Shown piece by piece: positions 40,455 to 64,000 of a stretch of DNA of 64,000 nt. Made by a program: the position numbers and the translations under genes. Each line of letters begins with the position of its first letter. Within the stretch, counting starts at the first letter, position 1. The stretch covers positions 25,671 to 89,670 of the forward strand of contig CAZLAD010000003.1 of the NCBI GenBank assembly GCA_964557535.1, given 5' to 3'. Under the pieces are notes generated by a model. The model was not told where the DNA came from. It searched no databases and saw only the letters and a list, made by a program, of their open reading frames with translations. Source of the stretch: an uncultured Candidatus Saccharibacteria bacterium. Lineage in GTDB: Bacteria; Patescibacteriota; Minisyncoccia; Phycocordibacterales; CSBR16-119.

Positions 40455-40554
40455 TAATTTATAAGTTTTAAACACTTTTACACATTGACAATATCTTATT
40501 GTGTTTTTTTACTTTATAATAAACTCATTAAAACTTTATAATTATTATCATTGT

Positions 40555-43500
40555 ATGAAATTACAAAGAGCATTTTTTTTGGTTATCGCACTCGCTTTCG
40601 TTGTGTCGCTCGGAACTCTCCTCACCGGCGGAGATAATCAAAAAGCTCAAGTCGTAAGTGGAACGAATTCCATCGCCTTGACCGCTCCCGCTTCGGGAAC
40701 AACCGTGTCCGTTGGACAAACTCTACCGATGACATGTCAGGCTGAAGTTGCGCAGGGATATGGGCTATCAAGACTCAAGTTTTCATGGTTTCAAAACAAC
40801 GGAGCCGAGGCAGGCGATCTCAAGGATAACCAATATGACCCATATATGTCCTCGGGCACTTTCACTGAAAATGTCACCATCCCAAACATAACACCAGGAT
40901 CTAATTTCAAACTACAGTGTGTTGGCTACTACAAGGATTTGAGCGATCTTTCTATTCCAGCAATTTCCAAAACTCAAAGTCTCACAATGAACCTGGTTAC
41001 GGTTCCAGTCTCTGTCCCTGGTTGTATGGATCCGTTGGCTACAAACTACAACCAAAATGCAACATTAGATGATGGCTCATGTATATATCCGGTAGTCGAC
41101 ACAACAGCTCCGTCAGTTCCAACAAGTTTGACGGCGGCTTTGCCAACCTCGAGCGCCATTCGTATAAACTGGTCAGCCTCGACAGACAATGTAGCTGTTG
41201 CTGGATATAAGATTTATCGAAATGATGGTGGAAATACACCAATGAATTTAACAACCCCAATAGCTACAGTTATCGCACCTTCAACAACATTTTTGAATCA
41301 GGGCCTTGTTGCCAACAGAAAATATAAATACCAGATTCGTGCATATGATGCCGCCGGCAATGACTCAGGTCTTTCAAGTGCAATCACGGTGACAACTAGA
41401 TCTGTATCGACACCGACAAATGTAGCTGTAACTTCTCCAACAACTGTTTCTTTGACAGTTTCTTGGACTCCACCATCAGCTTCAAATACTTTTAGCTACA
41501 AAATTTATTCCAATCATGCAAATGGTGGAGGAACTTCTACTATAAATACGACAACGCCAGTCGGAGAAGTTTTTGTTTCGAGCGGATCAAACATGTTTGT
41601 ATTCGGCGACAACGATCCAGCTACCCCAATGCCACAATTGGCACCAAACACTCAATATCGTTTCAGAGTAGCTGCTGTTGATGACGCCAACAACAGATCA
41701 ACACTAATGCCAAACGTTTCTTCGGGTGTTTCTGGAACGACTCTTGGCAATACGACTCCGCCACCATCAGCACCTTCTGGGCTAAATGTCGTTACTACCG
41801 GATCGACAACCGCCACAGCTACATGGACAGACAACTCAAACAACGAAACAGGATTTACTTTGCAGAGGGCTACGAATTCCGGATTTAGTTCTAATTTAGT
41901 TACAATCTCTAGTACGATTTCTGCAAATTCCCAATCTTTTGGTGTAACTGGTCTTTCTGCGGGATCAACATATTATTTCCGTGTACAGGCAAATGCCTCG
42001 ACACCTTCAGCTTGGGCAACTTTTGGACCGCTTACATTGCCTGTTGCCGACACAACTGCACCAACAGCAACTATCACCGCGCCGACAGCAGGCCAGGTTT
42101 TGCCAGCGGGAACAGCCAGTACGACTTTGGCTGTCACGACAAACGAAAACGCCACTTGTAAATGGAATAGCACAGATGCCTCATATTCTTCTATGACTGG
42201 TTCTATGGCTGGTACAGGAACAATGTCACACACAGCAACACTCACAGGACTTGTAAATGGTACTAGTTATACACGATATGTACGATGCCAAGACGTAGCA
42301 GGTAACCCAATGACCACAAGTCAGTCCAGGACGTTTAGTGTTGCCGTGCCGGCTGATACAACAGCTCCAGCTATTCCAACACTTTCAGTTGGAACAATTA
42401 CTTCGGAAACCGTTGCGCTTTCTTGGAATGCTGTTACTGACCCATCTTCACCAGTTTCGTACAAGATTTACCGCAATGGCACTTATATTGGTTCTCCAAT
42501 TTCTGGCACTTCTACAACCGATTCTGGTTTAGTCGCCGGAACACTTTATTCATACACAATCTCTGCTTGCGACAATGCACCAACGCAAAACTGCTCCGCT
42601 CAATCAACCACAGTTACAGCGACAACAACCGCTATTCCAACAATAGTTTCATCTCTTCAGGTTGTTCAAACAAACGGAACAGTAGTCTCTACTCTTACGA
42701 GCGGACAACAACTAAACGTTGGCTCCCAAACAAACGCTACGTATCCACCACTTAATGGAGCTTTCTCTGTAAAGGCCAACCCAGGCACACCGGCTCCAAC
42801 AAGCATCAAGTTTGAATTGACAGGCCCTTCAGGATTTACGGCATACACTCAGTGCGAAAGTGCTTCGCCGTTCGCAATGTATGGCGATGCCTCTGGAACA
42901 TACACTTCATGGCCAACAGCTACTCAGATTTTGGGTGCGTACACGTTAACCGTAACTCCATACGCTGCCACTACTTGTACTGGGGCGGCGGGTACACCGA
43001 TTGTAAGCCAATTCATCTTGGCGAACTTTGATGACTTAACCAACCCGACAAATCCTTCACAAGCCAATGCCACATATAGATCGTCTGGAGAAATCAGGCT
43101 TTCTTGGACGGCTTCATCTGATTCGAGTGGAATTAGTCATTACAACGTTACGCGAACGCCGGGTGGTATTGTAAATGTCGGTAATCAAACAACATATGTA
43201 GACACGAATGGCTTAAATGGAACGACAGGATACACATATACTGTTACCGCAGTTGATAATGTCGGAAATTCTTCTGGTGTTTCAAATGCCGTTGTTTCGC
43301 CTACGCTTTCGACGACATTTAGTAATGCCGATCTGGTCCAAACAAACGAGGCCAGTGTAGAGGTAAAAGCTTCTCCAGACGCGCCTAATGGTATTGGTTT
43401 TCAAACAAATCCAAACTCCGCAGGTACTATTACAAACGCCCCAACATCTCCGACAAATCCAGTCTGGGTAAAAAATGAGGGCGATTATTGGTATGTAAAC

Positions 43501-46500
43501 TTTAACTCCGGACTCGATGGATGGGTAAACGAATCTAAAATTGATGCATTTGTTCCACAACCTCCAACCGCAAATATTACCGCACCAACCGCTGGACAAG
43601 TTCTCGCTTCTGGTACAACAACGGTAACTCTATACGTAACAACAAACGAAGCTGCTACTTGTAAATGGGCAACAACAGACATGGCTTATGCTTCTATGAC
43701 GAATACCTTTACCGGCTCTGGATCGACTTCTCACAACTATCCGTTACTTGGATTGACCGATGGAACACAATACACGCGATATGTTCGTTGTGCGGATACC
43801 GATGGTAATCAGATGACATCAAGCGTAAGTGTTTCGTTTAGTGTTGCGACAAGTGTGCCGACCGGCGATCCTGTCGTAAATACTACATGTCCAGCGACGA
43901 TGCCTACTATTGAGTACGATGCTCGAAACGCAGCGAGACTAACTGTTCAACTTTGTGCTCAGATCTCGGAAAGCTCTACACCAAAAACGATCACGCTTAA
44001 GTGGGCAAATGTTACAGGAAGAACGGTAAGTAGCATTACAATTTATCGAAAAACAGAAACTGGTTCATGGACAAGCGTCGGCACGCCGGCTGCTTCATCA
44101 ACAAGTTGGACAGACACAAATGTTACCGCTGGTACTTACTATGAATACAAAGTTCAAATGGTCACTGGTGGCTCAGAGGGAACAGTCTATGGATACATTG
44201 CTTCGGGTATAAAAGTTCCTCAAGAATCTTATCGAGGAAGACTGGTTTTGGTTGTTGATAACACCAAAGCTAACGGACTAAACGGTTCTGCTCCAACTTC
44301 TGGTCCACTCGCAACACAAGTTAGCCAGCTCATAAATGAATTAACTGGCGATAAATGGATCGTATCCCCTGTGTATGTTAGTCAGAGCGCAACACCAGCA
44401 ACAGTTAGAGCCTTGATAAAAGGATACTACGATACAGACGCGGGCGATGGTAATTCAAATACAAATACAAAAGCAGTATATATCTTTGGTCATGTTCCGG
44501 TTGCGGGTATAGGTAATCTAAATCCAGATGGACACGGAGGAAGAGGAATTTCAAGTGACGTAATTTATAGTGAAATGACTTCGACTTGGAACACGGGCTC
44601 CGTTGGATCATCGGCCGGTTATGGTGTGTCAGCAGGTTTCACTATGCCAAGTACTCATACTTATAACAATCCAACTCCAGACGCGGGAGAGCTACAGGTT
44701 GGACGTGTCGATATGTATAATCTTCCTGGTATGCCGGGGACCGAAAATGAAAAACTTACTAACTATCTTGCAAAGGCAACAAATTTCAAAAAACGACTAT
44801 ATACGCCAACTGACACGATGTATCTAAGAGCTAGAACTCCTTTCACATCTTCGGGTATGGCCGGCTGGAGTAGTACAGCCTCTGTGGTCGGACCTCAAAA
44901 CGTGACTCACGATAGAACAGCAAGCGACCTTTGGACAAACTTGGGTCAAAATCATCTCTTTGTTCTAGGTTACGGACAAAGCGGTGGCGTGTTGGCGGTA
45001 GACAAGATTCCTCAGCCAGGGCTATGTATTTCTGGATGCGGTTCAAACAACTTGACGAGTGTTAGCTGGGGTGGAGTATTTAACGCCCTCAGTTCAAGTT
45101 ATATCGTTGAATGGAACGATACAAACTCAATCCTGCGATCTATTTTGGCCGATGAAGGAAAATCACTTACTATGTCATACGGCATAGATAACCATTGGTA
45201 TTTCCACCACATGGGAATGGGCAAGACCGTCGGGTATTCGGCGCTTAGCTCGCTAAACAACAATACGAACTTGTATTATCCACGAGGCATGACAGGTGAT
45301 TGGAATAATTCAAGCAATGGAAACAATGCATACGGTCACATGGCACTCCTTGGAGACCCAACTCTTCGTGCTCACTATGTTGGTATGCCGACAGGAAATC
45401 TCTCTATTACAAACAGTGGCGGATTGGCAGCGTTTTCATGGGGTGCGTCGAGCGATTCACCGCTTGGATATAACCTCTACGAGATTCAGACGAATACGAT
45501 TAGAAAAGTAAATTCAAATATTATTTCTGGAACTTCATATACTTCTTCTGATAGCTATGATGCAAATAGAAAGTATATGGTAACGGCGGTTAAAGTGAGG
45601 GCTGGTAATAGCGGAACATACTACAATGAATCCCTAGGACTTATTGGTGGAGGTGACGGAGGCGGTGTACTCTTGGGCGATCTCGATAACCCAACATGGT
45701 CTGGAGGAACATCGAATCTCACGGTTACTTCACCAACTGCAACTTCTCTCGCTACTTCGTGGAACACTGCAACAGACGCGACACAACCTGTAACTTACAA
45801 ACTTCAAAGAAGAGCGAGCGGAGGATCATTTGCCGAAGTGTATAGCGGAACAGCAACGTCTTTCTCAAATACAGGACTTGTCGCAGGGACAACCTATGAA
45901 TTTCAAGTGAGAGCTTGTGATGGCGTAGGAATTCCAAACTGCACCAGCTGGTCTTCGACGGTTTCAGGCACAACAACAGCAAACGACACTACATCACCAA
46001 CAACTCCGGGCGCTCCGACATCTACTGGCATAACAGCTTCATCGATCAGTCTTTCTTGGACTGCGTCGACTGACGCCGTAGGCGTAACAGGCTACAAGAT
46101 TTACAGAAGCGCAACAGCTGGTGGAACTTACTCAGAAATCGGAACTTCGGCAACGAATTCCTATACAGACACTGGACTTTCGGCAAGTACATCGTATTAC
46201 TATAAAATTTCCGCATACGACGCTGCTGCGAATAATTCTGCTCAATCAAGTGCTTCTGCTGCGATCACAACTAGCCAAGCTCAAAGTGGGGGACAGACAG
46301 TCTCTGGTATCAATGGTCCAGTTGGTCCGAGCTTAACGACAAATCAAACCTCTTGTACCAATCCTTCCGGTGGAACGATTTACTACGTAGATGCTGTAAA
46401 TGGAAATGATTCAAACAACGGAACGTCAGTTAGTACAGCTTGGAAAACAATCACCAAGGTCAACAACTCGATGTCTAGTATCAACGCCGGAATGATGCTT

Positions 46501-48453
46501 TGTTTCAAGAGGGGCCAGACACATCGCGGTAAACTTTCATTCATAAAATCTGGAACATCAACATCTCCAATTATTATCGATGCATATGGAACAGGTTCTG
46601 CACCAGTTATCTCTGGTAATGTTCTTGTGACAAATTGGACCCAACACTCTGGAAATATTTGGAAAGCAACACTTTCTAGTGCACCGGTAACTCCACCAAA
46701 ATATTTGTTCGTCAATAGTGATTATCAAACAATGGCGCGTCAACCAAACACTGGTTGGTATTACACAGAAGCTCGTGCCGCGAACTCTCTAACGGACACA
46801 AATAACTCTTGGCTTTCTTCACAATCTGCTAACTCTTTGACTGGCGCAAATATCTTCATGAGAGGAACACCTTGGTCAAGTTCAGTTATTCTTGTAACGG
46901 GCAATTCAGGTTCTACTATAAACGGTGAACGCTGGGATGACCTTACGCCAGGAGTCGTGTCAGGCACGCCAACAGCTATTAAATACGGTACGACATGGTC
47001 TGATCTTGCATGGGGATATTTCCTCCGAAACAAGGTTTCCTTCATCGACACACCAGGCGAATGGGCATTTGATTCGGCCACAAACACTGTCTATTTATGG
47101 GCACCAGGAAGTGCAAATCCAAACAACCTGACAGTAGAGCTTTCTTCAGAAGCAGAGGGCATCTACTTGAATACAGCAAGTTATGTCAAAGTTAGAAACT
47201 TGATTGTCGAAGGCCAAACAACCTACGCCATTCGTATGAGTTCTAATCGTGGTGTGACGCTTGAAAACAATGAAATTAGAAATGCTTACATTGGAGTTCA
47301 CCAATATTTCACGTCTTCTAGTTACACTACCCCAAACTTATTCTCCAATAACCACATTCATGACATAAACACAGCTGGTCTTTCTTTGAACGTGTCAGGT
47401 TCTGGAGATGTTGTAGAGGGCAACGTTGTCGAAAATATCTCAACCGTCGAAGACAGAATATTCTCTTCGGACATGACACATATCGGTATCTTGCCTCCGA
47501 ACAACAATGGAATCACCAGAAGAAACATTATTCGAGATATTGGATGGTCTGGAATCGCGGCAAGTGGATCTGGCCTTATCACCGAAAACTTGATTGAACG
47601 AACGATGAAGATTCACACTGACGGTGCCGGTATTACATTTGACAATACTGACGGCTTGGTGATGAGTAAAAATATCGTCAAAGATACGGGGGTTGGTTCT
47701 GGTCAATACGCAGGAACAACTGCAGGACCAGGAGCAACGACCAACATGGTTTCAATGCCTCTTATTTACAATGGTTATTCGGCAAAAGACAAGGCTTTCT
47801 ATGTCGGAGATAGTTCAGCCGGCGGTCCACCAAAAAATTACACAATCGATGGAAACATTATCATCAATGCCACCGACGGTGTTTGGATGGATCATCCAAA
47901 CGGTGTAATCAATAATAAAGTAACCAATAACGTAATCTACGATTTCAATCGGGCAGGTATCGGAATAACGAATTATTCGATGAATCGATCGACAACCTGT
48001 GATCCGGCAGAAAATAGTGCGTGCTTTAGAAATTTTGACGACACGATTACCGGAAATAAGATTTATGGCGTTGCTTCTTATCAAAACCCACTTTATTCTC
48101 TCCAGTCATGGAGTAATGGCGCGGGAGCGGTAGTTGATTGGGGAACGATTAACAATAACTACTACTACAATCCGTTCAGAACTGGCAAGATTTATGAAGT
48201 TAGAAACTTTGGTACAGGCGAAAATCAATGGACATTGGCTCAGTGGCAAGCAGCACGTAGTGAAGATCTCAATTCCACATCTTCGAACTATACTTTGACC
48301 AATACAAACCAAAAAGCCCAAATCTTCTATAATGCGACTGGTTCACCGATCACTCAATCAGTAAATGGATGTAATGCTAATGGTACACCTCTAACAGGTA
48401 ACCAGACGATTCAACCATTTACCGCGCTAGTAGTAGAATATGGAAATTGTTAA
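40555..48453 (+). CDS. Giant secreted or surface protein (about 2630 aa). Signal peptide, one GCMDPxATNYN...DDGSC Cys-motif, multiple fibronectin type III-like domains, a duplicated 95-aa 'CKW' module, and C-terminal right-handed parallel beta-helix (pectate-lyase-like) repeats.
   Basis: ATG at 40555 precedes 'MKLQRAFFLVIALAFVVSLGTLLTG'; the GTG at 40501 is rejected. Many FN3 blocks ('SAIRINWSASTDNVAVAGYKIYRN', 'SWNAVTDPSSPVSYKIYRN'). Two homologous modules around 42050-42340 and 43560-43850 ('TNE[NA]ATCKW...TRYVRC'). PbH1-type repeats from about 47150 to 48100 ('NNEIRNAYIGV', 'GNVVENIS', 'NIIRDIGWSGIAAS', 'KNIVKDTGVGSG'). Confidence 0.8.
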   Translation: MKLQRAFFLVIALAFVVSLGTLLTGGDNQKAQVVSGTNSIALTAPASGTTVSVGQTLPMTCQAEVAQGYGLSRLKFSWFQNNGAEAGDLKDNQYDPYMSSGTFTENVTIPNITPGSNFKLQCVGYYKDLSDLSIPAISKTQSLTMNLVTVPVSVPGCMDPLATNYNQNATLDDGSCIYPVVDTTAPSVPTSLTAALPTSSAIRINWSASTDNVAVAGYKIYRNDGGNTPMNLTTPIATVIAPSTTFLNQGLVANRKYKYQIRAYDAAGNDSGLSSAITVTTRSVSTPTNVAVTSPTTVSLTVSWTPPSASNTFSYKIYSNHANGGGTSTINTTTPVGEVFVSSGSNMFVFGDNDPATPMPQLAPNTQYRFRVAAVDDANNRSTLMPNVSSGVSGTTLGNTTPPPSAPSGLNVVTTGSTTATATWTDNSNNETGFTLQRATNSGFSSNLVTISSTISANSQSFGVTGLSAGSTYYFRVQANASTPSAWATFGPLTLPVADTTAPTATITAPTAGQVLPAGTASTTLAVTTNENATCKWNSTDASYSSMTGSMAGTGTMSHTATLTGLVNGTSYTRYVRCQDVAGNPMTTSQSRTFSVAVPADTTAPAIPTLSVGTITSETVALSWNAVTDPSSPVSYKIYRNGTYIGSPISGTSTTDSGLVAGTLYSYTISACDNAPTQNCSAQSTTVTATTTAIPTIVSSLQVVQTNGTVVSTLTSGQQLNVGSQTNATYPPLNGAFSVKANPGTPAPTSIKFELTGPSGFTAYTQCESASPFAMYGDASGTYTSWPTATQILGAYTLTVTPYAATTCTGAAGTPIVSQFILANFDDLTNPTNPSQANATYRSSGEIRLSWTASSDSSGISHYNVTRTPGGIVNVGNQTTYVDTNGLNGTTGYTYTVTAVDNVGNSSGVSNAVVSPTLSTTFSNADLVQTNEASVEVKASPDAPNGIGFQTNPNSAGTITNAPTSPTNPVWVKNEGDYWYVNFNSGLDGWVNESKIDAFVPQPPTANITAPTAGQVLASGTTTVTLYVTTNEAATCKWATTDMAYASMTNTFTGSGSTSHNYPLLGLTDGTQYTRYVRCADTDGNQMTSSVSVSFSVATSVPTGDPVVNTTCPATMPTIEYDARNAARLTVQLCAQISESSTPKTITLKWANVTGRTVSSITIYRKTETGSWTSVGTPAASSTSWTDTNVTAGTYYEYKVQMVTGGSEGTVYGYIASGIKVPQESYRGRLVLVVDNTKANGLNGSAPTSGPLATQVSQLINELTGDKWIVSPVYVSQSATPATVRALIKGYYDTDAGDGNSNTNTKAVYIFGHVPVAGIGNLNPDGHGGRGISSDVIYSEMTSTWNTGSVGSSAGYGVSAGFTMPSTHTYNNPTPDAGELQVGRVDMYNLPGMPGTENEKLTNYLAKATNFKKRLYTPTDTMYLRARTPFTSSGMAGWSSTASVVGPQNVTHDRTASDLWTNLGQNHLFVLGYGQSGGVLAVDKIPQPGLCISGCGSNNLTSVSWGGVFNALSSSYIVEWNDTNSILRSILADEGKSLTMSYGIDNHWYFHHMGMGKTVGYSALSSLNNNTNLYYPRGMTGDWNNSSNGNNAYGHMALLGDPTLRAHYVGMPTGNLSITNSGGLAAFSWGASSDSPLGYNLYEIQTNTIRKVNSNIISGTSYTSSDSYDANRKYMVTAVKVRAGNSGTYYNESLGLIGGGDGGGVLLGDLDNPTWSGGTSNLTVTSPTATSLATSWNTATDATQPVTYKLQRRASGGSFAEVYSGTATSFSNTGLVAGTTYEFQVRACDGVGIPNCTSWSSTVSGTTTANDTTSPTTPGAPTSTGITASSISLSWTASTDAVGVTGYKIYRSATAGGTYSEIGTSATNSYTDTGLSASTSYYYKISAYDAAANNSAQSSASAAITTSQAQSGGQTVSGINGPVGPSLTTNQTSCTNPSGGTIYYVDAVNGNDSNNGTSVSTAWKTITKVNNSMSSINAGMMLCFKRGQTHRGKLSFIKSGTSTSPIIIDAYGTGSAPVISGNVLVTNWTQHSGNIWKATLSSAPVTPPKYLFVNSDYQTMARQPNTGWYYTEARAANSLTDTNNSWLSSQSANSLTGANIFMRGTPWSSSVILVTGNSGSTINGERWDDLTPGVVSGTPTAIKYGTTWSDLAWGYFLRNKVSFIDTPGEWAFDSATNTVYLWAPGSANPNNLTVELSSEAEGIYLNTASYVKVRNLIVEGQTTYAIRMSSNRGVTLENNEIRNAYIGVHQYFTSSSYTTPNLFSNNHIHDINTAGLSLNVSGSGDVVEGNVVENISTVEDRIFSSDMTHIGILPPNNNGITRRNIIRDIGWSGIAASGSGLITENLIERTMKIHTDGAGITFDNTDGLVMSKNIVKDTGVGSGQYAGTTAGPGATTNMVSMPLIYNGYSAKDKAFYVGDSSAGGPPKNYTIDGNIIINATDGVWMDHPNGVINNKVTNNVIYDFNRAGIGITNYSMNRSTTCDPAENSACFRNFDDTITGNKIYGVASYQNPLYSLQSWSNGAGAVVDWGTINNNYYYNPFRTGKIYEVRNFGTGENQWTLAQWQAARSEDLNSTSSNYTLTNTNQKAQIFYNATGSPITQSVNGCNANGTPLTGNQTIQPFTALVVEYGNC

Positions 48454-48750: not shown

Positions 48751-49179
48751 ATGAAGAAAACAGTTTCTCCAGAAGTTAAAAAAAATTTTAAAATAATCCG
48801 TGCCCAAAAGGGTTCTGGTATGGGACTTATGGCCATGCGGGATTTCAAAAAAGGTGAGCGGATTATTGAATATACGGGTATAATTAAAAAAACCAAAGAT
48901 GTCGAAGATGATACGACCAAATATCTCTTTGAAATTAACAAAAGCTTTACGATAGACGGTTCGCCCAGATGGAACTTGGCTCGTTACATTAATCACTCCT
49001 GCGCCCCAAACGCTGAGTCGGTGGTGACCAAAGGTCAAGTTTTCATTGACGCCATCAAACCAATCAAGGCCGGCGACGAGATTACATATGATTACGGCAA
49101 AGAGTATTTCAATGAATTTATAAAACCGGTTGGCTGCAAGTGTGTTAAATGTTTAACCAAAAATAAAAATGGAAAATAA
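48751..49179 (+). CDS. SET-domain protein (putative protein lysine methyltransferase)
   Basis: 'RYINHSCAPNAE' (NHSCxPN) plus 'GDEITYDYG' and a C-terminal Cys cluster 'CKCVKC' (post-SET). Start taken at 'MKKTVSPEV', preceded by TATACT. Confidence 0.7.
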   Translation: MKKTVSPEVKKNFKIIRAQKGSGMGLMAMRDFKKGERIIEYTGIIKKTKDVEDDTTKYLFEINKSFTIDGSPRWNLARYINHSCAPNAESVVTKGQVFIDAIKPIKAGDEITYDYGKEYFNEFIKPVGCKCVKCLTKNKNGK

Positions 49180-49861
49180 CGAAATAAAAGAAGAAACAAT
49201 AACTGCCACCAAACAAAGACTTAATATTCCCTCCGCGATTGTTTTGGCTGGGGTAATTATTGCAGCGGCGGTGTTTTTAAAGGGGGCACAGCCAGCCGCG
49301 AAAGCTACAACTGATAGTGGGGACAAACTCGATCTGGTAGCTGAAGTCACAGAAGATGATTTTGTCAGGGGAGAAAAAAGTGCGCCCGTAACGCTTATCG
49401 AGTATGCCGACTTTTCATGTCATTTCTGTGCAGATTTTCAGTTGACGCTTAAAAAGCTCGTCGATGAATCGGCTGGTAAAATCAAGTGGGTTTATCGACA
49501 TTTGCCAATTTTTAACATTGAGGCGGCCGTTGCGAGTACTTGCGTTGGACGTCTTGGCGGAGATGATGCTTTTTGGCAATACGCCGACACGTTGTTTACA
49601 AATAGAGACAAATTTGGAACCTCGTATTATAAAAAACTGGCCATAGATTTAAACATTAAAGAATCCGAATACGATGAATGTGTAAATAATCCAGAAACAG
49701 AAAGAGTGATCAAGGCCGACTTTACCCAGAAAAGAACCCTTCTTGGCTTTAATGGCACACCACACATGGTTTTGATTGACAAAAATGGCAAAAAGTTTTC
49801 TATTACGGGAGCTTTGCAGTACGAAGAGCTAAAATCAGTAATTGATTCGCTCGATAATTAG
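49169..49861 (+). CDS. DsbA-family thiol:disulfide oxidoreductase (membrane-anchored)
   Basis: 230 aa. N-terminal TM, thioredoxin-fold active site 'FSCHFCADF' (CxxC). Confidence 0.75.
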   Translation: MENNEIKEETITATKQRLNIPSAIVLAGVIIAAAVFLKGAQPAAKATTDSGDKLDLVAEVTEDDFVRGEKSAPVTLIEYADFSCHFCADFQLTLKKLVDESAGKIKWVYRHLPIFNIEAAVASTCVGRLGGDDAFWQYADTLFTNRDKFGTSYYKKLAIDLNIKESEYDECVNNPETERVIKADFTQKRTLLGFNGTPHMVLIDKNGKKFSITGALQYEELKSVIDSLDN

Positions 49862-49906: not shown

Positions 49907-50395
49907 ATGAAATCAATGTACGCAATCATCATAGTTTTAGTGGCAATTGTCGCGGTATTCTTTCTTCTAAAGAGAGATGTTCCTGTTGAACCTGCGCTCG
50001 AAGTTTCTACAGCTGAAACTATTACAACTAACGAAACATCAAATATGACAACAGAGAATACTAGCACAGCTTCTGAGCTTACAATGACAACAACTAAAGA
50101 GGGGGCTGGCGCTTCAGCCAAAGACGGAGATTTACTGGCCGTTCATTACACTGGTTATTTGGCCGACGGAACAAAATTTGATTCAAGCGTTGATCGTGGT
50201 TCACCTTTTGAATTTACTTTGGGAACAGGTATGGTTATTCAGGGTTGGGACATTGGTGTTCGGGGTATGAAAGTTGGCGAAGCTCGCAGACTCGTGATTC
50301 CAGCCAAATATGCTTATGGTGAACAAGGTTTCCCAGGTGTAATCCCAGAGAACGCGACACTTACATTTGATGTCGAGCTTGTTGAAATAAAATAA
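49907..50395 (+). CDS. FKBP-type peptidyl-prolyl cis-trans isomerase (membrane-anchored or secreted)
   Basis: 162 aa. 'LAVHYTGYLADGTKFDSSVDRGSPFEFTLGTGMVIQGWDIGVRGMKVGEARRLVIPA' is the canonical FKBP core. Confidence 0.85.
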   Translation: MKSMYAIIIVLVAIVAVFFLLKRDVPVEPALEVSTAETITTNETSNMTTENTSTASELTMTTTKEGAGASAKDGDLLAVHYTGYLADGTKFDSSVDRGSPFEFTLGTGMVIQGWDIGVRGMKVGEARRLVIPAKYAYGEQGFPGVIPENATLTFDVELVEIK

Positions 50396-55585: not shown

Positions 55586-56215
55586 ATGCCAGAAATAAGC
55601 CCAGTTTTTTATGTTTTAATCTTGATCATTTCGGTGATTATTCATGAGATAGCCCATGGCTATGCGGCGCTTCGCTTTGGCGACCACACGGCCGAATATC
55701 AAGGCAGACTTACGTTAAATCCGCTAAAACATCTAGATATTTACGGCTCGGTTTTGCTACCGCTTCTTTTGGTTGTAACTCAAGCCCCATTTCTTATTGG
55801 TTGGGCCAAGCCAGTTCCGTATAACCCAGAAAATTTCGAACCGGCGAAGAGGAAAATCGCTACTTTGTGGGTGGCTTCAGCTGGAATTCTGACCAATCTC
55901 GTCATCGCGGTTCTGTTTAGTGTAATTATTCGTTTTGCTTCATCGGGAATACTTTTCCCGGAAAGCTTCATTCCTTTTTGTGGAGTTATCGTGTTTTTGA
56001 ATATTGTTTTGGCGATTTTCAATCTCATGCCAATTCCGCCACTTGATGGATCAAAGATACTTTTTAGTCTCGGTGGTTATAGCATGTTAAAAATCGAGAG
56101 ATTTTTTGAGAAATACTCTCTAGTTTTACTGGTATTGTTTATTTTTTTCTTGTGGCAATTTGTCACGCCTGCAATCTTCTTTCTATTCAACATTTTCACC
56201 GGACTGCCTGTTTAG
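55586..56215 (+). CDS. Site-2 protease-family (M50) intramembrane zinc metalloprotease, small form
   Basis: 209 aa. 'HEIAHGYAA' is the HExxH in TM1; downstream there is an 'LNLMPIPPLDG' (LDG) motif. Confidence 0.8.
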   Translation: MPEISPVFYVLILIISVIIHEIAHGYAALRFGDHTAEYQGRLTLNPLKHLDIYGSVLLPLLLVVTQAPFLIGWAKPVPYNPENFEPAKRKIATLWVASAGILTNLVIAVLFSVIIRFASSGILFPESFIPFCGVIVFLNIVLAIFNLMPIPPLDGSKILFSLGGYSMLKIERFFEKYSLVLLVLFIFFLWQFVTPAIFFLFNIFTGLPV

Positions 56216-56228
56216 CTCATCCCCCAAG

Positions 56229-56310
56229 CAAAACAAAACACAAAATTTCATTTACGAGGACCTGGTGCGTAGACACGATTCGACAGGAAATGAAATTTGT
56301 GTTTTGTGGA
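56229..56310 (+). ncRNA. Copy 3 of the conserved 80-nt hairpin element, directly after the M50 gene
   Basis: Stem CAAAACACAAAATTTCATTT / AAATGAAATTTGTGTTTTG. Loop ACGAGGACCTGGTGCGTAGACACGATTCGACAGG. Confidence 0.5.
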
Positions 56311-56406
56311 GCGCCCCTTTATCCACAATAAATGTCTTTTTAAAACCTTTTTCTAGACCCGGGTGATATAATTGTGGCGTATTAACAATTCACTCATTTA
56401 AATATT

Positions 56407-56691
56407 ATGGAACCAAAATCTCATAAGAGCAGAAACATATTGATAATTATCTTAATTATCGTCGTTGTCATCTTTTTGATAGCAAAAAAGAAAGCCCCAT
56501 CAGACCAATTAACTGAGGAGCAAAAACAAGCCATCATCGAGGAATTGAACAGAAACTACGTTCCGTCAAACTTAACCGAAGAAGATAAAAACAACATCTT
56601 AATCGAGGTGAAATCCCAATCTTCTAGCACGAACAATATATCAGAAGAACAAAAAACCGGTATTTTAAATCAAGTAAAGAAAAACAATTAA
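56407..56691 (+). CDS. Small membrane-anchored low-complexity protein
   Basis: 94 aa, TM 'ILIIILIIVVVIFLIA'. Lies 4 nt upstream of the next gene. Confidence 0.35.
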   Translation: MEPKSHKSRNILIIILIIVVVIFLIAKKKAPSDQLTEEQKQAIIEELNRNYVPSNLTEEDKNNILIEVKSQSSSTNNISEEQKTGILNQVKKNN

Positions 56692-56694
56692 TCT

Positions 56695-58434
56695 ATGACG
56701 TCGGTCGCCAAAATAAAAACAACAAAAAAATTTTTCGCAGTCTTTTTCTTGGTTGTTGCGGGTATTTTGGTTGGTTTTAATTTAGCGTCATCCCAAGAAC
56801 CAAGCCCTTTTGAGCTGGGCGATGTTTACGGTAACGCTTGGATGGGAACTCATATTGAAAATATGGGCATGAGCGAAGGCGGGGGAGGCTGGCTTCGTTT
56901 TAATTGTTTGCCAGATAACTGCGACAGTACTATTGGTGAATGGGGTGTCAAAATTGACGCTGATCAAAACAGTCCAGGTTACGGTGAGTTTGCTGGCTAT
57001 GCATGGAGTTCAAACTATGGTTGGTTTAGCTTAAATCCTGGCGATGTCGCAACTTGTTGGATGCAAAATCCAGACGTTACTTCGACCAGCGTGGCCAAAG
57101 CCCTCCTTGGTCAAAGTAGCGACGTCGAGGTGCCGGTTGTCGGTTGGGGTAAATTTCTAGCTGGTGACGATGTCTATGATGATGGTTGGGACGGGTGTGT
57201 CGCCTTTGGTGGTTTCAATAATTCAGTTCGATTAAACAGAGAAGACGGCGCCCTAAAAGGTTGGGCGTGGGGAGGAGAAGTTGTCGGTTGGGTAAGTTTC
57301 CAAAATCCAGAATGTCCGTTTTGTGATACTACAGTTGTTCTAGACAGAATCGTCGGTTGTATGGATCCAAATGCAACCAATTATAATCCTTTGGCCACAG
57401 TCCCTGGCAGATGCAGTTATGGGCCACCAGTTGTGGGTTGTATGGATCCAAACGCCACAAACTATAACCCACTTGCCACCGTCCCGGGTAGATGTAGCTA
57501 TGGTCCTCCGGTTCGTGGTTGTACCGACTCAACAGCTACAAACTACAACCCATTGGCAACAATAGACGATGGAAGTTGTACATATGGTCCGGTAGATCCA
57601 GATGGTGATCCTCGCCCAACACTTAATCTTCAGGCTACTCCAAATACTCTATACGTTGGAAGCTTAAATTACACGACGGGGCTAACATGGACATCGGATC
57701 AGCCGTCAGAACTTTCTGGTTGTGTCGGAAGTTTGACCGGTACAAACGTTTTGGATCTAGGCAATCAGACTAACTGGGATGGTCCACGAAGTTCTCCAAA
57801 CATTACTACTCCATTTGACGTAAACCTCGCACCGTATGCATCGACGGCTGTCTCTGGAAATCAATATACCTTTAGATTAACGTGTAATTTGTCTGGCGGA
57901 GGAATAATATTCGACACTGCCGTGGTTAACATGATCGATCAAATAAATCCAACCGAACCACCTCTTATCTCACTTCAAATTATCTATCCGAACATCGATA
58001 GTAATTTGGCTACAGAAAATATTGCGCCTTGGAATCCAATAACGCTGTCCGGAGGTATGGATCCAGTAACACTTAGGTGGCAGGCCCTAAACGTTGTTGA
58101 TGGATCATGTGTTGGTACTTCCAAAGTATTTAATACGCCGACATCTACTGGCGATGGCCCGAACTTGGCTCCAAGTACATATCCAGGACAGGCGGCTTGG
58201 GATAGTTTGGCACTATTGCTTGACGGTGGAGGTTATGGACAACTTAACCTAAATGTCACAAATCCAAACTATATTAAAAACACTAAATTCCAGATTAGTT
58301 GCGAGCCGTTAAATAATCCAGGAACTACGATCAGGGCACAAGTTTGTCTGGGTGTCGAGGGTCAACAGTTCCCACAATCTCAGTGTCAAGCAGGAAATAG
58401 CATAAATCGTCCACCAGGTTACAAAGAAATTTAA
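56695..58434 (+). CDS. Secreted protein with three tandem copies of the 26-aa Cys-motif (GCMDPNATNYNPLATVPGRCSYGPPV x2, GCTDSTATNYNPLATIDDGSCTYGP)
   Basis: 579 aa with an N-terminal TM/signal. The tandem 78-nt DNA repeats at about 57355-57590 differ at many synonymous sites although the amino acids are identical. A palindromic terminator CATAGCGCGTAG-aaaatt-CTACGCGCTATG follows at 58458-58487. Confidence 0.6.
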   Translation: MTSVAKIKTTKKFFAVFFLVVAGILVGFNLASSQEPSPFELGDVYGNAWMGTHIENMGMSEGGGGWLRFNCLPDNCDSTIGEWGVKIDADQNSPGYGEFAGYAWSSNYGWFSLNPGDVATCWMQNPDVTSTSVAKALLGQSSDVEVPVVGWGKFLAGDDVYDDGWDGCVAFGGFNNSVRLNREDGALKGWAWGGEVVGWVSFQNPECPFCDTTVVLDRIVGCMDPNATNYNPLATVPGRCSYGPPVVGCMDPNATNYNPLATVPGRCSYGPPVRGCTDSTATNYNPLATIDDGSCTYGPVDPDGDPRPTLNLQATPNTLYVGSLNYTTGLTWTSDQPSELSGCVGSLTGTNVLDLGNQTNWDGPRSSPNITTPFDVNLAPYASTAVSGNQYTFRLTCNLSGGGIIFDTAVVNMIDQINPTEPPLISLQIIYPNIDSNLATENIAPWNPITLSGGMDPVTLRWQALNVVDGSCVGTSKVFNTPTSTGDGPNLAPSTYPGQAAWDSLALLLDGGGYGQLNLNVTNPNYIKNTKFQISCEPLNNPGTTIRAQVCLGVEGQQFPQSQCQAGNSINRPPGYKEI

Positions 58435-58604
58435 GTACGAGTACGTAGTACATAGCGCGTAGAAAATTCTACGCGCTATGTCATTTCTACGAACTACGCA
58501 TTACGCTCCAATCAAGGTTTTCCACATTACTGTTTCGCTTCGTCAAATTAAAACTTGCGAAGGTGATATTATATAAAGAGCTTTATAAATTTATTATCAA
58601 AACT

Positions 58605-61600
58605 ATGCGTAATTTATTATCAAAACTTTTTCTATCTTTTTTTATTCTTTTGTTTGCAACTCCGGCTCAACTTTTGGCCCAAGAGAATACATGGACTGCT
58701 CCAGCCGGCAACGCTCCTGGATTTAACGTCGCGGCGCCTGTAAACATCGGTCCTCTCACTCAAACCAAGAAAGGTCCACTTATAATCGAAAACCGATTTT
58801 TGGGTGGTGCGGTAACGAATCCGTCTAACAACCAAACGATTAGTGCACTCGAAACAATGGCTGGGTCAACAACGACTCGAGGAGCCACGATCTTTGATGC
58901 GTATCCGGCTGGATCGTCGATGGAATCTTCGCCAGCTTTTTTCTTGTCTTTTGTGAGGTCTATATTTGCCAATCACGTTCAGATTGGTGATCAGTCACCT
59001 AGTATGGGCGGTAGAAATTTGAAACTTTTTGGTAATTTCCAATACATCCCTACAAACGAAGAAGATGGTACTCCGGCAAACAATCAGCCAATGCCGGGCT
59101 ATGCTCTAACAGCGCTAGATACTCAGGGAAACACCGGCTGGCGACCAGCTCTTCCAAACGGTGGGAATGATGGCGATACCCTTATATGGGATGTAGATTG
59201 TCAGTGTTGGGTTGTTGGACCAGTAACAAACACAAACGGCGGTACTCTTCCATCAGGTGCACAGGGTCAGACTCTGTGGTACAGCGCGCCGAACGTTTTG
59301 CAAGCAACAAATCAGATAAGACATGGAATTGGCCCTGATGGCACCACCACAACGACTGTTTTAGAAAATGAAGACATAACCATAGGTGCAGCTGGAGGAG
59401 CTATGGGTGCTGGTATAACTAGAATTATGACTCCAAATACTGGTATCTTAGGTTACGGAACCATCGATATTGGTGTCAATACAGACGGGCAAACAAATAT
59501 CAATTCACAACAAGTAACATTTACTGAACCAGCGGGTAACAATTTCTTCCAGACAGTTGACGTTAAGTCTAAATATGTAAATTTTACAGCTCCACCATCG
59601 GGTGCGGATAGCCAGGTTGTTGATTTTGCTTCGAAGACGGTGAATTTTGACGACGGCGCTGGTCAGATAGCTGACTATCAAACAGTCAATGTAAAATCCG
59701 GCAACACAAATTTCGTTGGTCCTACTGTTAGTTTCCAGGACGCCAACGGTCAGCCTTCAGATTATCAAACCGTCAATGTAAAATCTGGCAATGTTAATTT
59801 TGCTGCACAAGATGATGGAGGAAATCAGACCGTTACTTTTGAGTCAGATACTGTTAAGTTTAGAAATATCGACATGAATCCTGGCCAGGGAAGAATCCCT
59901 TATGCCATGGATGATGAAGGACGTTTTGTGTGGAATAAAAACTTTGTTTATAACCAGCAAGACGTTCCAGGAGTCGGGCTTGTAAACGAACTTCGATTGA
60001 AAAACGATCAAGTCGGCCAAGGTCAAACAGCTACTCCAAGCGTTCTTACCAATGAAGGATTGACTCTACTTCAAGATGACGTGTTTGTGGATGGCGGAGA
60101 TTTGGCAGTGACAGATCAAGGAGATCTCTATCTCGAGGGCTTAGCACAAGCTTCAGTATTAGAGATTAGTCAAAATCAGGTAAGACAACTTTGTTACGTA
60201 GAGAATACCAAAAAAATAGTGAGTTGCAATACAGTTGTCCCGGGTAGCGGCACTAATCCATCCTTGGAACCAGTGTACGAGACAGATTACGAAGTTTTCA
60301 GAACAGCTGAGAATAACACAGGACCTCTCAGTAGTTATACATTCAACTCTAACCAAGCCGTAGATCTTAAATTCTGTGGTGGAGGCGGCGGTGGAGGCGG
60401 AGGCGGAGGTGGTATTCTTGGAAAAGGAGGCGGCGGTGGAGGCGGCGGTGGAGCCGGGCCTTGTCAGATTTTAGAGGGTTTTCCTGTTAGCGTTGGAGAT
60501 GTTTTGAGTTGGAATATTGGTGATGGTGGGGAGGGGGGTCTTGGAGCTAAAAAACAAGAGGGTCAACCAAATATTAATACATTAGCTTCTGATGGTTTAA
60601 ATGGCTTCCCCACAAGTGTGTTTATTGACTACGCAAACGATTCTTTGGGCCCTATTCAAATCGGTCAAACTCAACAGGGTGGTTTTGGTGGTAAAAAGGG
60701 TCAAGGATTTAATAACCCGAATAGTTGTGTTTATAATGCTGCTGTTACTGGATCGGCTGGTGGAAAAGGTGGTAATGATTCTTTAAGTGGGTATGAAGGT
60801 AATGAAGATTGTGCTGATTTGATACTGGTTATTCCAACATGGCACGACGGTCAAACAGGTTGTCTTGGAAATACTGGTGGCGGAATTCAAAATTGTTCTG
60901 TAAACAGTGACCTTGGTGGTTATGGTGGTGACGGAGAAAATCCAGTAGGATCAGTTTTGCCGCCCATATCTGGAACAGCAAATAGTGCCGGAGGTAATCC
61001 TGGTATAGATGATTATGCAGAAACGATGACGTCAGACCATTTAGCTAATAGAACTGGTGGTCCTGGTTATGCTGGTTCGCCTGGTAATGGAGGAGGAGGT
61101 GGAGGAGGAGGATTCGGTAGTGCAGAATACACCAACGTTGAAGCTGGTGTTATAACCGGCGTATCTCCGCTCGTGTCGTGGACAAAATGGCCTGGTGGTG
61201 GTAATGGTGGAAAGGGTGGAAGTGGATATGTTCAAGTTACCGGAATCTTAAATAATACATCTGGTACAAATGCCGTAGAATTTACAATACCTTCGACCAA
61301 CACTCCTTTTGCCGTGAACGCTATTCCTGTGGCAGTTAATACTGTAACTATCGAGGTGTGGGGCGCATCCGGAGGAGGAGGAGGAGTAAAAACTGGACTC
61401 TTTGCTGATAGAATTGCTGGTGGTGGAGGAGCGGGCGGTTATATAAAGGTTGAGGATGTTCTAAAAACTCAACTTGGAACAGGAAACATGTTGATAAAAG
61501 TTGGCAGTGCTGGTTCTGCCGGAAATTCGTCTGGTGATTCTAGCGAAGTTACAAATGGCGGTAATGGCTCTGATTCTTGGATTAAAAAATCAGATGGTAC

Positions 61601-61898
61601 CGTTATTGTGTCAGCTTCTGGTGGGTCGGGTGGACCAAAAGATATAACTAGTAGCACAGACTCAATTTATCCAAACGGTGGGCTTGGTGGAGGATTTTCA
61701 ACACCTTCAGTTGCTGGAACAGTAACATCTTCACAGGGTCTGAGTGGATTGGGCGGTAGCAATGGCGGCGGCGGAGGAACCAACTCTATTGGAGGAAATA
61801 TTAATAACGGAGGATCAGGAGCTTCAACAAATACTTGGGCTGGCTTGAGTAACCAGTCGACAGGAGGTCAAAACGGAAAAGTCAGAATCTCTTGGTAA
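58605..61898 (+). CDS. Large (about 1100 aa) secreted glycine-rich protein with poly-Gly tracts
   Basis: Signal peptide 'MRNLLSKLFLSFFILLFATPAQLLAQEN'. Runs 'GGGGGGGGGGGILGKGGGGGGGGGAGP', 'GNGGGGGGGGFGS', 'SGGGGGVK', 'GGGGAGGYIKV'. No catalytic motifs recognized. Confidence 0.6.
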   Translation: MRNLLSKLFLSFFILLFATPAQLLAQENTWTAPAGNAPGFNVAAPVNIGPLTQTKKGPLIIENRFLGGAVTNPSNNQTISALETMAGSTTTRGATIFDAYPAGSSMESSPAFFLSFVRSIFANHVQIGDQSPSMGGRNLKLFGNFQYIPTNEEDGTPANNQPMPGYALTALDTQGNTGWRPALPNGGNDGDTLIWDVDCQCWVVGPVTNTNGGTLPSGAQGQTLWYSAPNVLQATNQIRHGIGPDGTTTTTVLENEDITIGAAGGAMGAGITRIMTPNTGILGYGTIDIGVNTDGQTNINSQQVTFTEPAGNNFFQTVDVKSKYVNFTAPPSGADSQVVDFASKTVNFDDGAGQIADYQTVNVKSGNTNFVGPTVSFQDANGQPSDYQTVNVKSGNVNFAAQDDGGNQTVTFESDTVKFRNIDMNPGQGRIPYAMDDEGRFVWNKNFVYNQQDVPGVGLVNELRLKNDQVGQGQTATPSVLTNEGLTLLQDDVFVDGGDLAVTDQGDLYLEGLAQASVLEISQNQVRQLCYVENTKKIVSCNTVVPGSGTNPSLEPVYETDYEVFRTAENNTGPLSSYTFNSNQAVDLKFCGGGGGGGGGGGGILGKGGGGGGGGGAGPCQILEGFPVSVGDVLSWNIGDGGEGGLGAKKQEGQPNINTLASDGLNGFPTSVFIDYANDSLGPIQIGQTQQGGFGGKKGQGFNNPNSCVYNAAVTGSAGGKGGNDSLSGYEGNEDCADLILVIPTWHDGQTGCLGNTGGGIQNCSVNSDLGGYGGDGENPVGSVLPPISGTANSAGGNPGIDDYAETMTSDHLANRTGGPGYAGSPGNGGGGGGGGFGSAEYTNVEAGVITGVSPLVSWTKWPGGGNGGKGGSGYVQVTGILNNTSGTNAVEFTIPSTNTPFAVNAIPVAVNTVTIEVWGASGGGGGVKTGLFADRIAGGGGAGGYIKVEDVLKTQLGTGNMLIKVGSAGSAGNSSGDSSEVTNGGNGSDSWIKKSDGTVIVSASGGSGGPKDITSSTDSIYPNGGLGGGFSTPSVAGTVTSSQGLSGLGGSNGGGGGTNSIGGNINNGGSGASTNTWAGLSNQSTGGQNGKVRISW

Positions 61899-62967: not shown

Positions 62968-63954
62968 CTAATCGCGAATGAGTTTGGTCGTCCTTGTCCC
63001 TTTTTCGGACTCGACGACAAGATGGTACAACCCTTTGGACTGAGTGGAGACTAGCTCCGTTAGCCCTGTCTCGGTAACTTGACCAGATGCGACTAGACGC
63101 CCTGCGGCATCCAAGAGGCGATATTCCTCTTTGGCGTTTGCCTGGAAGAATAGTCTGTCGCCGTCCCATGGGTTTGGGTAAACGATCAGGGCAGGTTGAT
63201 TCGTTGGTTCCACATGTGTGGAGATACTTTGGACAGTCTGGCAGACTTCCTCAGTACCGAGGTTGATCACGTGAGGATCAAATAGTGGCGTGTCGCCAGT
63301 GTCCATCCATGCGAGAGTCGCTTGGGCACACACTTCGATCGCTGGTCCGTCGTAAACCCATGCATGTTCGTGGACAATGTCCGTCCACGAATTATGGAGT
63401 TCTGCAACGAAAGTCTCAAGAACCTCACCCTCGCCATCAACGATCTCGACGGTTTGGAGAAGTTCCTGTTCCGCGCAACGCCCGACCAATTCGGCCGGAA
63501 GTCCCCAGAAGGGACCAGTTGTTACTCGAAGTCGGAACTCCGAAGTACTACCGGAAATATTCTCAATCGTAACCTCCGGAGTCTCTTCCCAGACGTGAAT
63601 CGAGTTTATTCCGATTGGTTCACAAGTCTCGACGTTGCCGTCGAAAATCCCGATCACCACTTGGTGCTCTTGTAGGAGCGTCGTCACGACCTCGTTGTAT
63701 TCCACCATGAAGATTCCTCCTCCGGTGGGTACGGATAGGGTGTGATGGGGGCTACCGTCAAGGTAGCACGCCAAAGTCCTCGGGCCGGAAGTCTCGACTT
63801 CCACCCGCACGGTGATGTTGCCCGGCTTGCTCGAAAACCAAGCCAAGGATTGCCCGTTGTCGCAATGACACGGGCTTAGCGCTATCTGATCTTGCGCCTT
63901 TGCCAAGACAGGCAAAAGCAGAAGGGTTAAAACGACAAGGAGCGGTTGTTTCAT
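62968..63954 (-). CDS. Secreted protein with a Bacteroidetes-type type IX secretion (T9SS / Por) C-terminal sorting domain; GC-rich (about 55%)
   Basis: Signal 'MKQPLLVVLTLLLLPVLAKAQ'. The C-terminal 'LIVYPNPWDGDRLFF...YRLLDAAGRLVASGQV...KGLYHLVVESEKGTRTTKLIRD' fits the T9SS C-terminal domain pattern (YPNP...GR.V......GxY.L.V.....K.I). Its GC content and codon bias differ strongly from the rest of the window. Confidence 0.6.
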   Translation of the reverse strand: MKQPLLVVLTLLLLPVLAKAQDQIALSPCHCDNGQSLAWFSSKPGNITVRVEVETSGPRTLACYLDGSPHHTLSVPTGGGIFMVEYNEVVTTLLQEHQVVIGIFDGNVETCEPIGINSIHVWEETPEVTIENISGSTSEFRLRVTTGPFWGLPAELVGRCAEQELLQTVEIVDGEGEVLETFVAELHNSWTDIVHEHAWVYDGPAIEVCAQATLAWMDTGDTPLFDPHVINLGTEEVCQTVQSISTHVEPTNQPALIVYPNPWDGDRLFFQANAKEEYRLLDAAGRLVASGQVTETGLTELVSTQSKGLYHLVVESEKGTRTTKLIRD

Positions 63955-64000
63955 GGCAGGTTTGGGTTTTTTGTAGTTTATCATAGAAGTAGACGATTGT

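Follow-up and report, generated by a model that had tools for sequence, protein, structure and literature searches.

A two-cysteine repeat in two predicted surface proteins of a Saccharibacteria bacterium: membership of a very large repeat family and a probable role as connector

A short motif with two cysteines occurs in two proteins encoded in a 64,000-nucleotide stretch of the genome of an uncultured Candidatus Saccharibacteria bacterium (the whole stretch being called here the window). It is found three times in tandem in a secreted or anchored protein of 579 aa (gene at 56695-58434, + strand, described from AlphaFold, Foldseek and ortholog alignment) and once in a giant surface protein. 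A first-pass annotation, made from the sequence alone, had drawn attention to this motif, had described its tandem copies as being under strong purifying selection and had proposed that it could be a disulfide-stabilized knot with which an episymbiont binds glycans or host surfaces. The locus thus raises the question of what this motif is, what it does, and why two of its copies encode the same peptide with different codons. Judged by their sequence, the copies in the window add to a very large repeat family that already exists but has no curated model. Our preferred reading, to which we give a probability of about 0.6, is that the repeat is a disulfide-stapled mini-domain that would connect globular domains and, in tandem, form a short stalk.

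The repeat and its family

The window was translated in six frames and scanned with a profile hidden Markov model (HMM) built from 110 family repeats of unrelated proteins. The scan detected exactly four copies, with no other match below E=0.8, which bears out the earlier observation that the motif is common to both proteins and triplicated in the 579-aa one. Copy 1 (GCMDPNATNYNPLATVPGRCSYGPPV; aa 221-246 of the 579-aa protein; 57355-57432, + strand; profile domain E=1e-10) is a variant, called here PGRC, that corresponds to the consensus minus one residue and is devoid of the acidic DDGS loop. Copy 2 (aa 248-273; 57436-57513, + strand; profile E=8e-11) has the identical peptide, and copy 3 (GCTDSTATNYNPLATIDDGSCTYGP; aa 275-299; 57517-57591, + strand; profile E=1e-16) is of the canonical 'DDGSC' type. 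The single copy of the giant protein (GCMDPLATNYNQNATLDDGSCIYP; 41020-41091, + strand; profile domain E=1.4e-15), also canonical, lies where it had been reported, at about 41020-41100. The tandem copies follow a 27-aa period, and Tandem Repeats Finder (TRF) returns for the 579-aa gene an 81-nt period with 2.6 copies and 75% matches. When the 579-aa and giant proteins were compared by BLASTP, the motif was their sole common part (E=9e-8).

The family consensus is yGCTDPxAxNYNPxA[TN]xDDGSCxY, with a period of about 26-27 aa. No variation is seen at positions G2, C3, A8, N10, A15 and C22, and almost none at Y/F11. These invariant residues are all present in four of the four window copies, the second cysteine of the PGRC copies 1 and 2 being located one residue earlier than family position 22. 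Invariant residues, profile scores, and period together with placement at domain junctions all assign the window copies to this GCxDxxAxNY...C family.

The search across Candidate Phyla Radiation (CPR) and other genomes that the first-pass annotation had called for shows that the motif extends far beyond this genome. A search with the entire 579-aa protein yielded more than 3,285 significant matches in which, past about 50 orthologs, the motif region alone aligns. With the 87-aa three-repeat region as phmmer query against 1.84 billion cluster representatives (50% identity), 12,283 clusters were matched at E<=1e-3, 5,230 at E<=1e-10 and 1,034 at E<=1e-30. The 279 proteins that were retrieved contain 4,583 repeats, with a maximum of 83 per protein and a modal tandem period of 26 aa. 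Many carriers, from marine metagenomes, have sorting domains of the type IX secretion system (T9SS; PF18962, TIGR04183, PF13585), and the repeat is also found in virion structural proteins of T4-like cyanophages. In the viral structure collection BFVD, 13 proteins were matched by Foldseek at E<=1e-3 (best 9e-9), including proteins with FN3, PA14 and crAss 'muzzle' domains.

Regarding these carriers, the arrays of Bacteroidota T9SS cargo proteins ('gliding motility-associated') and of marine phage virions contain the same repeat by profile, with the 26-27 aa period, beside immunoglobulin (Ig)-like, FN3 or lamin-tail (LTD) domains, as in the window proteins. However, they usually consist of 5-80 units and end in a T9SS C-terminal domain, whereas the window proteins have one and three units and no such domain; a four-cysteine subtype (ACNY...SCEYxSC) that is common in these relatives is likewise absent from the window proteins. 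Neither the 579-aa nor the 2650-aa window protein carries a PF18962, TIGR04183 or PF13585 domain, and both were rejected as T9SS cargo. The layout of the 579-aa protein is matched by gp232 of Synechococcus phage S-CAM3, a cyanophage virion structural protein (L009, 1069-2619) composed of an N-terminal domain, two degenerate copies of the repeat (aa 150-198) and Ig-like domains.

No model of the repeat was found in Pfam, NCBIfam or PHROGs when the window proteins, multi-repeat relatives and single units were scanned. A full-text search of the literature with motif strings retrieved only a peptide of the maize protein PIFI, the bacterial repeat being undescribed there. The domain databases therefore have a gap, as a repeat whose secreted carriers in bacteria and phages number in the thousands is without a curated model, and some of its multi-copy carriers are picked up by the Pfam model of photosystem I subunit N (PsaN, PF05479). 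Indeed, five multi-repeat relatives (P0031, P0035, P0053, P0073 and P0081) pass the PsaN gathering threshold of 21 bits, solely through the sum of sub-threshold matches to model positions 73-101. PsaN annotations of bacterial surface proteins are therefore probably caused by the repeat, as far as these sequence matches indicate. Membership of the PsaN family itself was rejected, as neither window protein matches PsaN at E<=1 and, among the chains of the Protein Data Bank (PDB), none of PsaN was matched by the repeat profile. A curated model would improve the annotation of T9SS cargo, CPR surface and phage tail proteins.

A small fold placed between larger domains

The three-repeat region was modelled with AlphaFold from a repeat-specific alignment, a check that had been suggested for the tandem array. 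The module folds confidently, with a mean predicted local distance difference test (pLDDT) of 91.2, and the predicted template modelling score (pTM) is 0.42; the units are therefore well defined and their mutual orientation is undefined. In each modelled unit, very short beta-bridges occur at the same three places, namely xGC, Tyr11 and positions 17-18. In a Foldseek search with this model against 350,542 PDB chains, three candidates only were obtained, all of them MPEG1 (perforin-2); for one of these, 24 columns superpose at 1.2 Å, and the identity is 38%. The repeat profile matches residues 331-353 of human MPEG1 (E=1.8e-6) and mouse MPEG1 (E=2.4e-3), and the crystal construct of the mouse MPEG1 P2 domain starts with a repeat-like segment. 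We conclude that the bacterial repeat is homologous to the so-called truncated EGF-like hinge of MPEG1.

In excerpts of two MPEG1 papers (PMC6989145, PMC7593815), this segment is named a 'truncated EGF-like domain' and is described as a 'small folded linker' and a 'hinge point' between the MACPF (pore-forming) and P2/MABP domains. According to an excerpt of a third paper (PMC9713709), the segment becomes unresolved in the pore state. A rotation of the hinge is proposed to drive the transition from pre-pore to pore. The segment and its disulfide are not discussed in the human MPEG1 paper, and a literature search for a tie between the perforin-2 EGF-like segment and bacterial repeats found none. 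MPEG1 (PDB 6U2J, 6U23, 6SB3, 6SB1) has the same sequence pattern, cysteine spacing and predicted fold as the window repeat, and the same bridging position between two globular extracellular domains. By contrast, its module is present in single copy in a metazoan pore-forming protein, whereas the 579-aa protein has three tandem units, two of them PGRC; in addition, a serine replaces the second invariant alanine. Neither window protein belongs to the MPEG1 family, as no MACPF match was found in either and the small module is all that they share with MPEG1. It should also be noted that the giant-virus MACPF proteins A0A3G4ZMM5 (Terrestrivirus, E=0.16) and A0A2I2L4X5 (Orpheovirus, E=4.6) gave weak Foldseek matches to the three-repeat model, a hint that the pairing of MACPF with the module predates animals and is not limited to MPEG1.

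The unit is not an EGF-like domain: it has two cysteines in 26-27 residues instead of six, paired in three disulfides, in about 35-40 residues, and no EGF family was matched at E<=1 (E<=10 for single units). MPEG1 is the one member of the repeat family with a solved structure, and its 'EGF-like' label is unsuited to the bacterial unit. Thrombospondin type 3 and calcium repeats were rejected because no Pfam TSP_3 match was obtained and copies 1 and 2 have no DDGS loop. As a general analogy, EGF, thrombospondin type 3 and LDL-A domains are likewise short, cysteine-stapled units, rich in aspartate and asparagine, between larger domains; they differ in cysteine number and spacing and no model of theirs is matched, so that the likeness does not amount to membership.

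The PIFI peptide retrieved by text search (maize, C0PM56; SGCTDPSSDMFDPLATVDDGSC) scores 34-35 bits against the repeat profile, equal to MPEG1, which would extend the module to plants. A C-terminal near-consensus copy of PIFI reads GCTDPSSDMFDPLATVDDGSC (peptide from PMC4650667). As relayed by a citing proteomics paper, the C-terminal domain of PIFI has two conserved cysteines for which an electron-carrying role was proposed (Wang & Portis 2007). PIFI is a chloroplast protein with a single copy, in which M-F replaces the N-Y core, and the role proposed for it is redox and not that of a linker. With odds somewhat short of even, all these proteins could belong to one unrecognised extracellular domain family of at least 12,000 clusters that links CPR bacteria, Bacteroidota, phages, the perforin-2 hinge and plant PIFI, 'EGF-like' being a misnomer in MPEG1. 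If this is true, the MPEG1 hinge is a module of bacterial or phage type, and a curated model would provide it with an evolutionary context. Together with the database gap, what is worth recording is the possible link of the bacterial and phage repeat with the perforin-2 hinge, apparently one and the same module, and with the PIFI cysteine pair.

In both window proteins the repeat is located at junctions. The 579-aa protein is composed of a signal-like N-terminus, a beta-rich head (about aa 40-215), the repeats (221-299), two Ig-like domains (about 308-415 and 424-555) and a C-terminal PGYKEI. In the full-length AlphaFold model the pLDDT is about 90 for the head and 55-76 for the repeats, below that of the flanking domains. 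The one unit of the giant protein is preceded by an N-terminal Ig-like region (weak Ig_3 match, aa 61-141) and followed by the first FN3 domain (FN3-type NF045522 stretch from aa 198). The orthologs of the 579-aa protein, which are CPR proteins, one of them named Candidatus Paceibacterota, keep the head and the Ig-like domains; their repeats number from 1 to 4, the order of PGRC and DDGSC units varies, and an extra domain with repeats on both sides is present in three of them (P0008, P0010, P0013). Since copy number and order change while the flanking domains stay, the repeat behaves as a connector or stalk. The PGRC variant is found mainly in this ortholog group.

These observations are compatible with the following mechanism. 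Each unit would fold as a very small loop that contains three short beta-bridges and in which a disulfide probably joins the two cysteines; we infer this bond from the invariance of the pair and from the presence in the window of genes for a VKOR-family and a DsbA-like protein. A single unit would be a compact connector between globular domains, and tandem units would form a stalk resembling beads on a string. In the 579-aa protein, three units would thus space the head from the two Ig-like domains, and in the giant protein one unit would bridge the N-terminal Ig-like region and the first FN3 domain.

Several points weigh against this connector role. The Foldseek E-values for MPEG1 are 3-8 and not significant alone, and we infer the disulfide as well as the spacer or hinge function. 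The PGRC copies 1 and 2, having no DDGS loop, may behave unlike a canonical unit. Positions D5, N10, Y11, N12, D18 and D19 are strongly conserved and could equally form a ligand or metal site, and the carriers in which the repeat is enriched, namely surface proteins and proteins of phage virions or associated with phage tails, are also those in which binding modules live.

The last two points bear on the possibility that the unit binds a ligand, namely a glycan or a host or prey surface, with tandem copies providing avidity. Across phyla, no variation is seen at the polar and aromatic positions N10, Y/F11, D18 and D19, the carriers include surface proteins and phage virion structural, 'muzzle' and PA14-domain proteins, and 26 of 26 residues were retained in copies 1 and 2. 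However, a fold of 22 residues needs nearly every conserved residue, so that conservation does not point to a ligand, and arrays of up to 83 units whose number and order vary in orthologs fit spacers better. In the excerpts cited above, the homologous MPEG1 segment is described as a linker or hinge and not as a binding site. Finally, one common ligand is hard to reconcile with a distribution that takes in CPR bacteria, Bacteroidota, phages, animals and plants. We therefore regard a binding function as unlikely. The knot proposed in the first-pass annotation survives as a real two-cysteine module with a plausible disulfide; its dedication to the surface binding of an episymbiont is not supported, given the occurrence of the repeat, in more than 12,000 clusters across taxa, in free-living marine Bacteroidota, phages, animal MPEG1 and a plant chloroplast protein.

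A second alternative, rather improbable in our view, is that the unit binds Ca2+ through D5, N10, N12 and the DDGS loop and thereby rigidifies the chain, like thrombospondin type 3 repeats or RTX-adhesin extenders; this would refine the connector idea and not replace it. In favour of this, acidic and amide residues are kept at their positions, many members of the family come from marine organisms (metagenome sequences of Tara Oceans), which live where calcium is plentiful, and the Ig-like part of the 579-aa model resembles Ca2+-stabilised adhesin extenders. On the other hand, PGR replaces DDGS in copies 1 and 2 and in ortholog variants, yet these are the most conserved copies; TSP_3 and the other calcium-repeat models of Pfam gave no match; and in the excerpts of PMC6989145 and PMC7593815 no metal is mentioned at the segment.

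Under the connector reading, the repeat carries little weight for this genome, in which it would be a standard connector of two surface proteins; evidence of a symbiont-specific adhesion knot was not obtained from them.

Selection on copies 1 and 2

Copies 1 and 2 are identical at 26 of 26 residues and differ at 16 nucleotides in 15 of the 26 codons. All of these differences are synonymous, 15 being third-position changes and one a first-position change in a leucine codon. The first-pass annotation was thus right about the amino acid identity and the synonymous nature of the changes, and too high in its count of about 20. The 26 codons comprise 18.5 synonymous and 59.5 non-synonymous sites, giving a proportion of synonymous differences (pS) of 0.86, beyond Jukes-Cantor (JC) correction, with a non-synonymous divergence (dN) of 0. 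The probability that 16 randomly placed changes would all be synonymous is about 1e-10. The number of differing codons, 15, compares with 15.8±2.3 expected for independent draws from the codon usage of the window, and therefore no trace of common ancestry is left in the DNA. This count, of the dN/dS type that had been called for, agrees with the strong purifying selection first reported.

The gene was also found in an independent assembly of the European Nucleotide Archive (ENA; NODE_16, 223 kb), where its 1740 nt are identical and the upstream flank has an indel. In a related strain (L001, 98% protein identity), the codon differences between copies 1 and 2 are kept. Sequencing error, which the first-pass annotation had named as a possible source of the synonymous differences, is ruled out by these two observations.

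Compared gene-wide, the window and L001 sequences have a pS of 0.045 and a ratio of non-synonymous to synonymous proportions (pN/pS) of 0.23. A gene-wide codon divergence of 0.57 at identical residues is reached only with an ortholog of 68% protein identity, the protein collection containing no relatives between 98% and 68% identity to the 579-aa protein. At that divergence, the PGRC repeats differ at 2-3 of 26 residues from those of the closest ortholog and at up to 7 from the others. The repeat is thus truly under purifying selection, to which the remainder of the gene is subject to a much lesser degree. The absence of any residue difference is the tail of the normal conservation of the family, with a chance of about 5-15% by a rough Poisson estimate of mean 2-3. 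Accordingly, the intense constraint, or selection against recombination, proposed initially is retained as strong constraint, most of which is the normal conservation of a family that changes 2-3 of 26 residues at equal saturation. Here again a parallel is known: by general analogy, polyubiquitin also has protein-identical tandem units with synonymous sites saturated under purifying selection, the contrast being that only two units are concerned here and that several repeat positions vary in orthologs.

Copies 1 and 2 would then go back to an old duplication, or to a homogenisation in the distant past, since which their synonymous sites were fully randomised while the purifying selection typical of the repeat kept every residue. 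One observation argues against this history: the two copies agree in every residue, even where orthologs differ from one another, somewhat above the prediction from the family average.

The same identity at variable positions gives the pair a young-looking protein, as would be expected if the codons had been scrambled by selection for DNA divergence, suppressing slippage or recombination after a fairly recent duplication or homogenisation. Two further observations could be read in this way: the synonymous difference of 0.60 of codons lies at the top of the saturated range (0.33-0.65), and, of the 18 synonymous changes that separate the window from L001, four are grouped in a stretch of eight codons in copy 2 (p=0.006 by a Fisher test chosen post hoc). 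However, the divergence is no greater than expected at random, the two being equal (15 versus 15.8±2.3 codons), and copies 1 and 3 are unchanged between the window and L001. Nearly DNA-identical neighbours are moreover tolerated elsewhere, between the first and third repeats of L002 and in an unrelated array, L006, in which four protein-identical units differ by 2-5 synonymous changes. The clustered changes may also be one short conversion event, and a single pair gives little power. Selection for DNA divergence is thus an improbable explanation of the codon differences.

The four clustered changes are located at 57454-57477 (codons 254-261), and two of them recreate the codons found in copy 3 and in the copy of the giant protein. 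Because of this match, a short gene-conversion tract is an equally good explanation of the cluster, which could be such a tract or a locally raised synonymous rate.

That the motif is a product of chance or a low-complexity linker confined to this genome, or that its synonymous differences are assembly errors, is practically excluded by profile E-values of 1e-10 to 1e-16, thousands of homologs, identical DNA from an independent assembly and a pLDDT of 91.

The two proteins and their neighbourhood

The exact 579-aa protein is present on three contigs, one of them NODE_16 of the independent assembly, and its best genome match in a scan of contigs is a metagenome-assembled genome (MAG) of Candidatus Saccharibacteria, with 49% identity. 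No Pfam or NCBIfam family matches it, and a Foldseek search with its full model returned only generic adhesin and cadherin Ig tandems, aligned to the Ig-like part. The head domain (56812-57339) contains a conserved GGGGW, repeated G(W/Y)AW...GW(I/V)SF motifs and a CPFC pair; over aa 40-215 or thereabouts it has no match among Pfam, NCBIfam and PHROG families or by Foldseek. The P-G-Y-x-E-I end (58414-58431) is nearly invariant in about 50 orthologs (P574, Y576, E578). The C-terminal PGYKEI could be a sorting or anchoring signal; a similar ending was not found on the other large proteins of the window.

The giant surface protein is listed as an open reading frame (ORF) of 2650 aa (40501-48453, + strand), in which eight or more FN3 stretches and a beta-helix region were recognised. 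The ORF is listed from GTG 40501, and a signal peptide (MKLQRAFFLVIALAFVVSLG...) starts at ATG 40555, which is likely, from the sequence, to be the real start. Both this protein and the 579-aa one have hydrophobic N-termini resembling signal peptides, in keeping with the earlier statement that both are secreted. The region had also been described as packed with giant surface proteins; this applies to the 2650-aa protein and to one of 1111 aa, the neighbours being mostly housekeeping genes.

A membrane-anchored DsbA/thioredoxin-like protein with an N-terminal hydrophobic segment is encoded just downstream of the giant gene (49169-49861, + strand; Thioredoxin_4 E=6.9e-22, DSBA E=8.4e-12), and its gene adjoins that of an FKBP-type isomerase (49907-50395). 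A VKOR-family protein, a membrane disulfide-bond oxidoreductase, is encoded at 24563-25600 (+ strand; Pfam VKOR E=5.8e-24). VKOR is the usual partner that re-oxidises DsbA-like proteins. The VKOR and DsbA-like proteins encoded in the window make extracytoplasmic disulfide formation plausible and, with the FKBP-type isomerase, look like an extracytoplasmic folding toolkit.

A secreted protein of 338 aa (62968-63984, - strand) matches the T9SS sorting domain Por_Secre_tail with 28.6 bits for a cut-off of 27, and its syntenic counterpart in L003 (16041-17057, - strand) also passes; such a domain is unexpected in a CPR bacterium without outer membrane. The gene of the 579-aa repeat protein belongs to a conserved order, composed of an M50 peptidase, a single-transmembrane (TM) protein of 94-100 aa, the repeat protein and a glycine-rich protein of 1043-1111 aa (Gly_rich_2). 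This order is found in the window (55586-61898), in L001, in L003 (8817-15025) and at orthologous loci down to about 50% identity. In the 1111-aa glycine-rich protein of the window (58563-61898), the Gly_rich_2 match is confined to the C-terminal part, and the sequence includes 12 uninterrupted glycines followed by ILGK and 10 more glycines.

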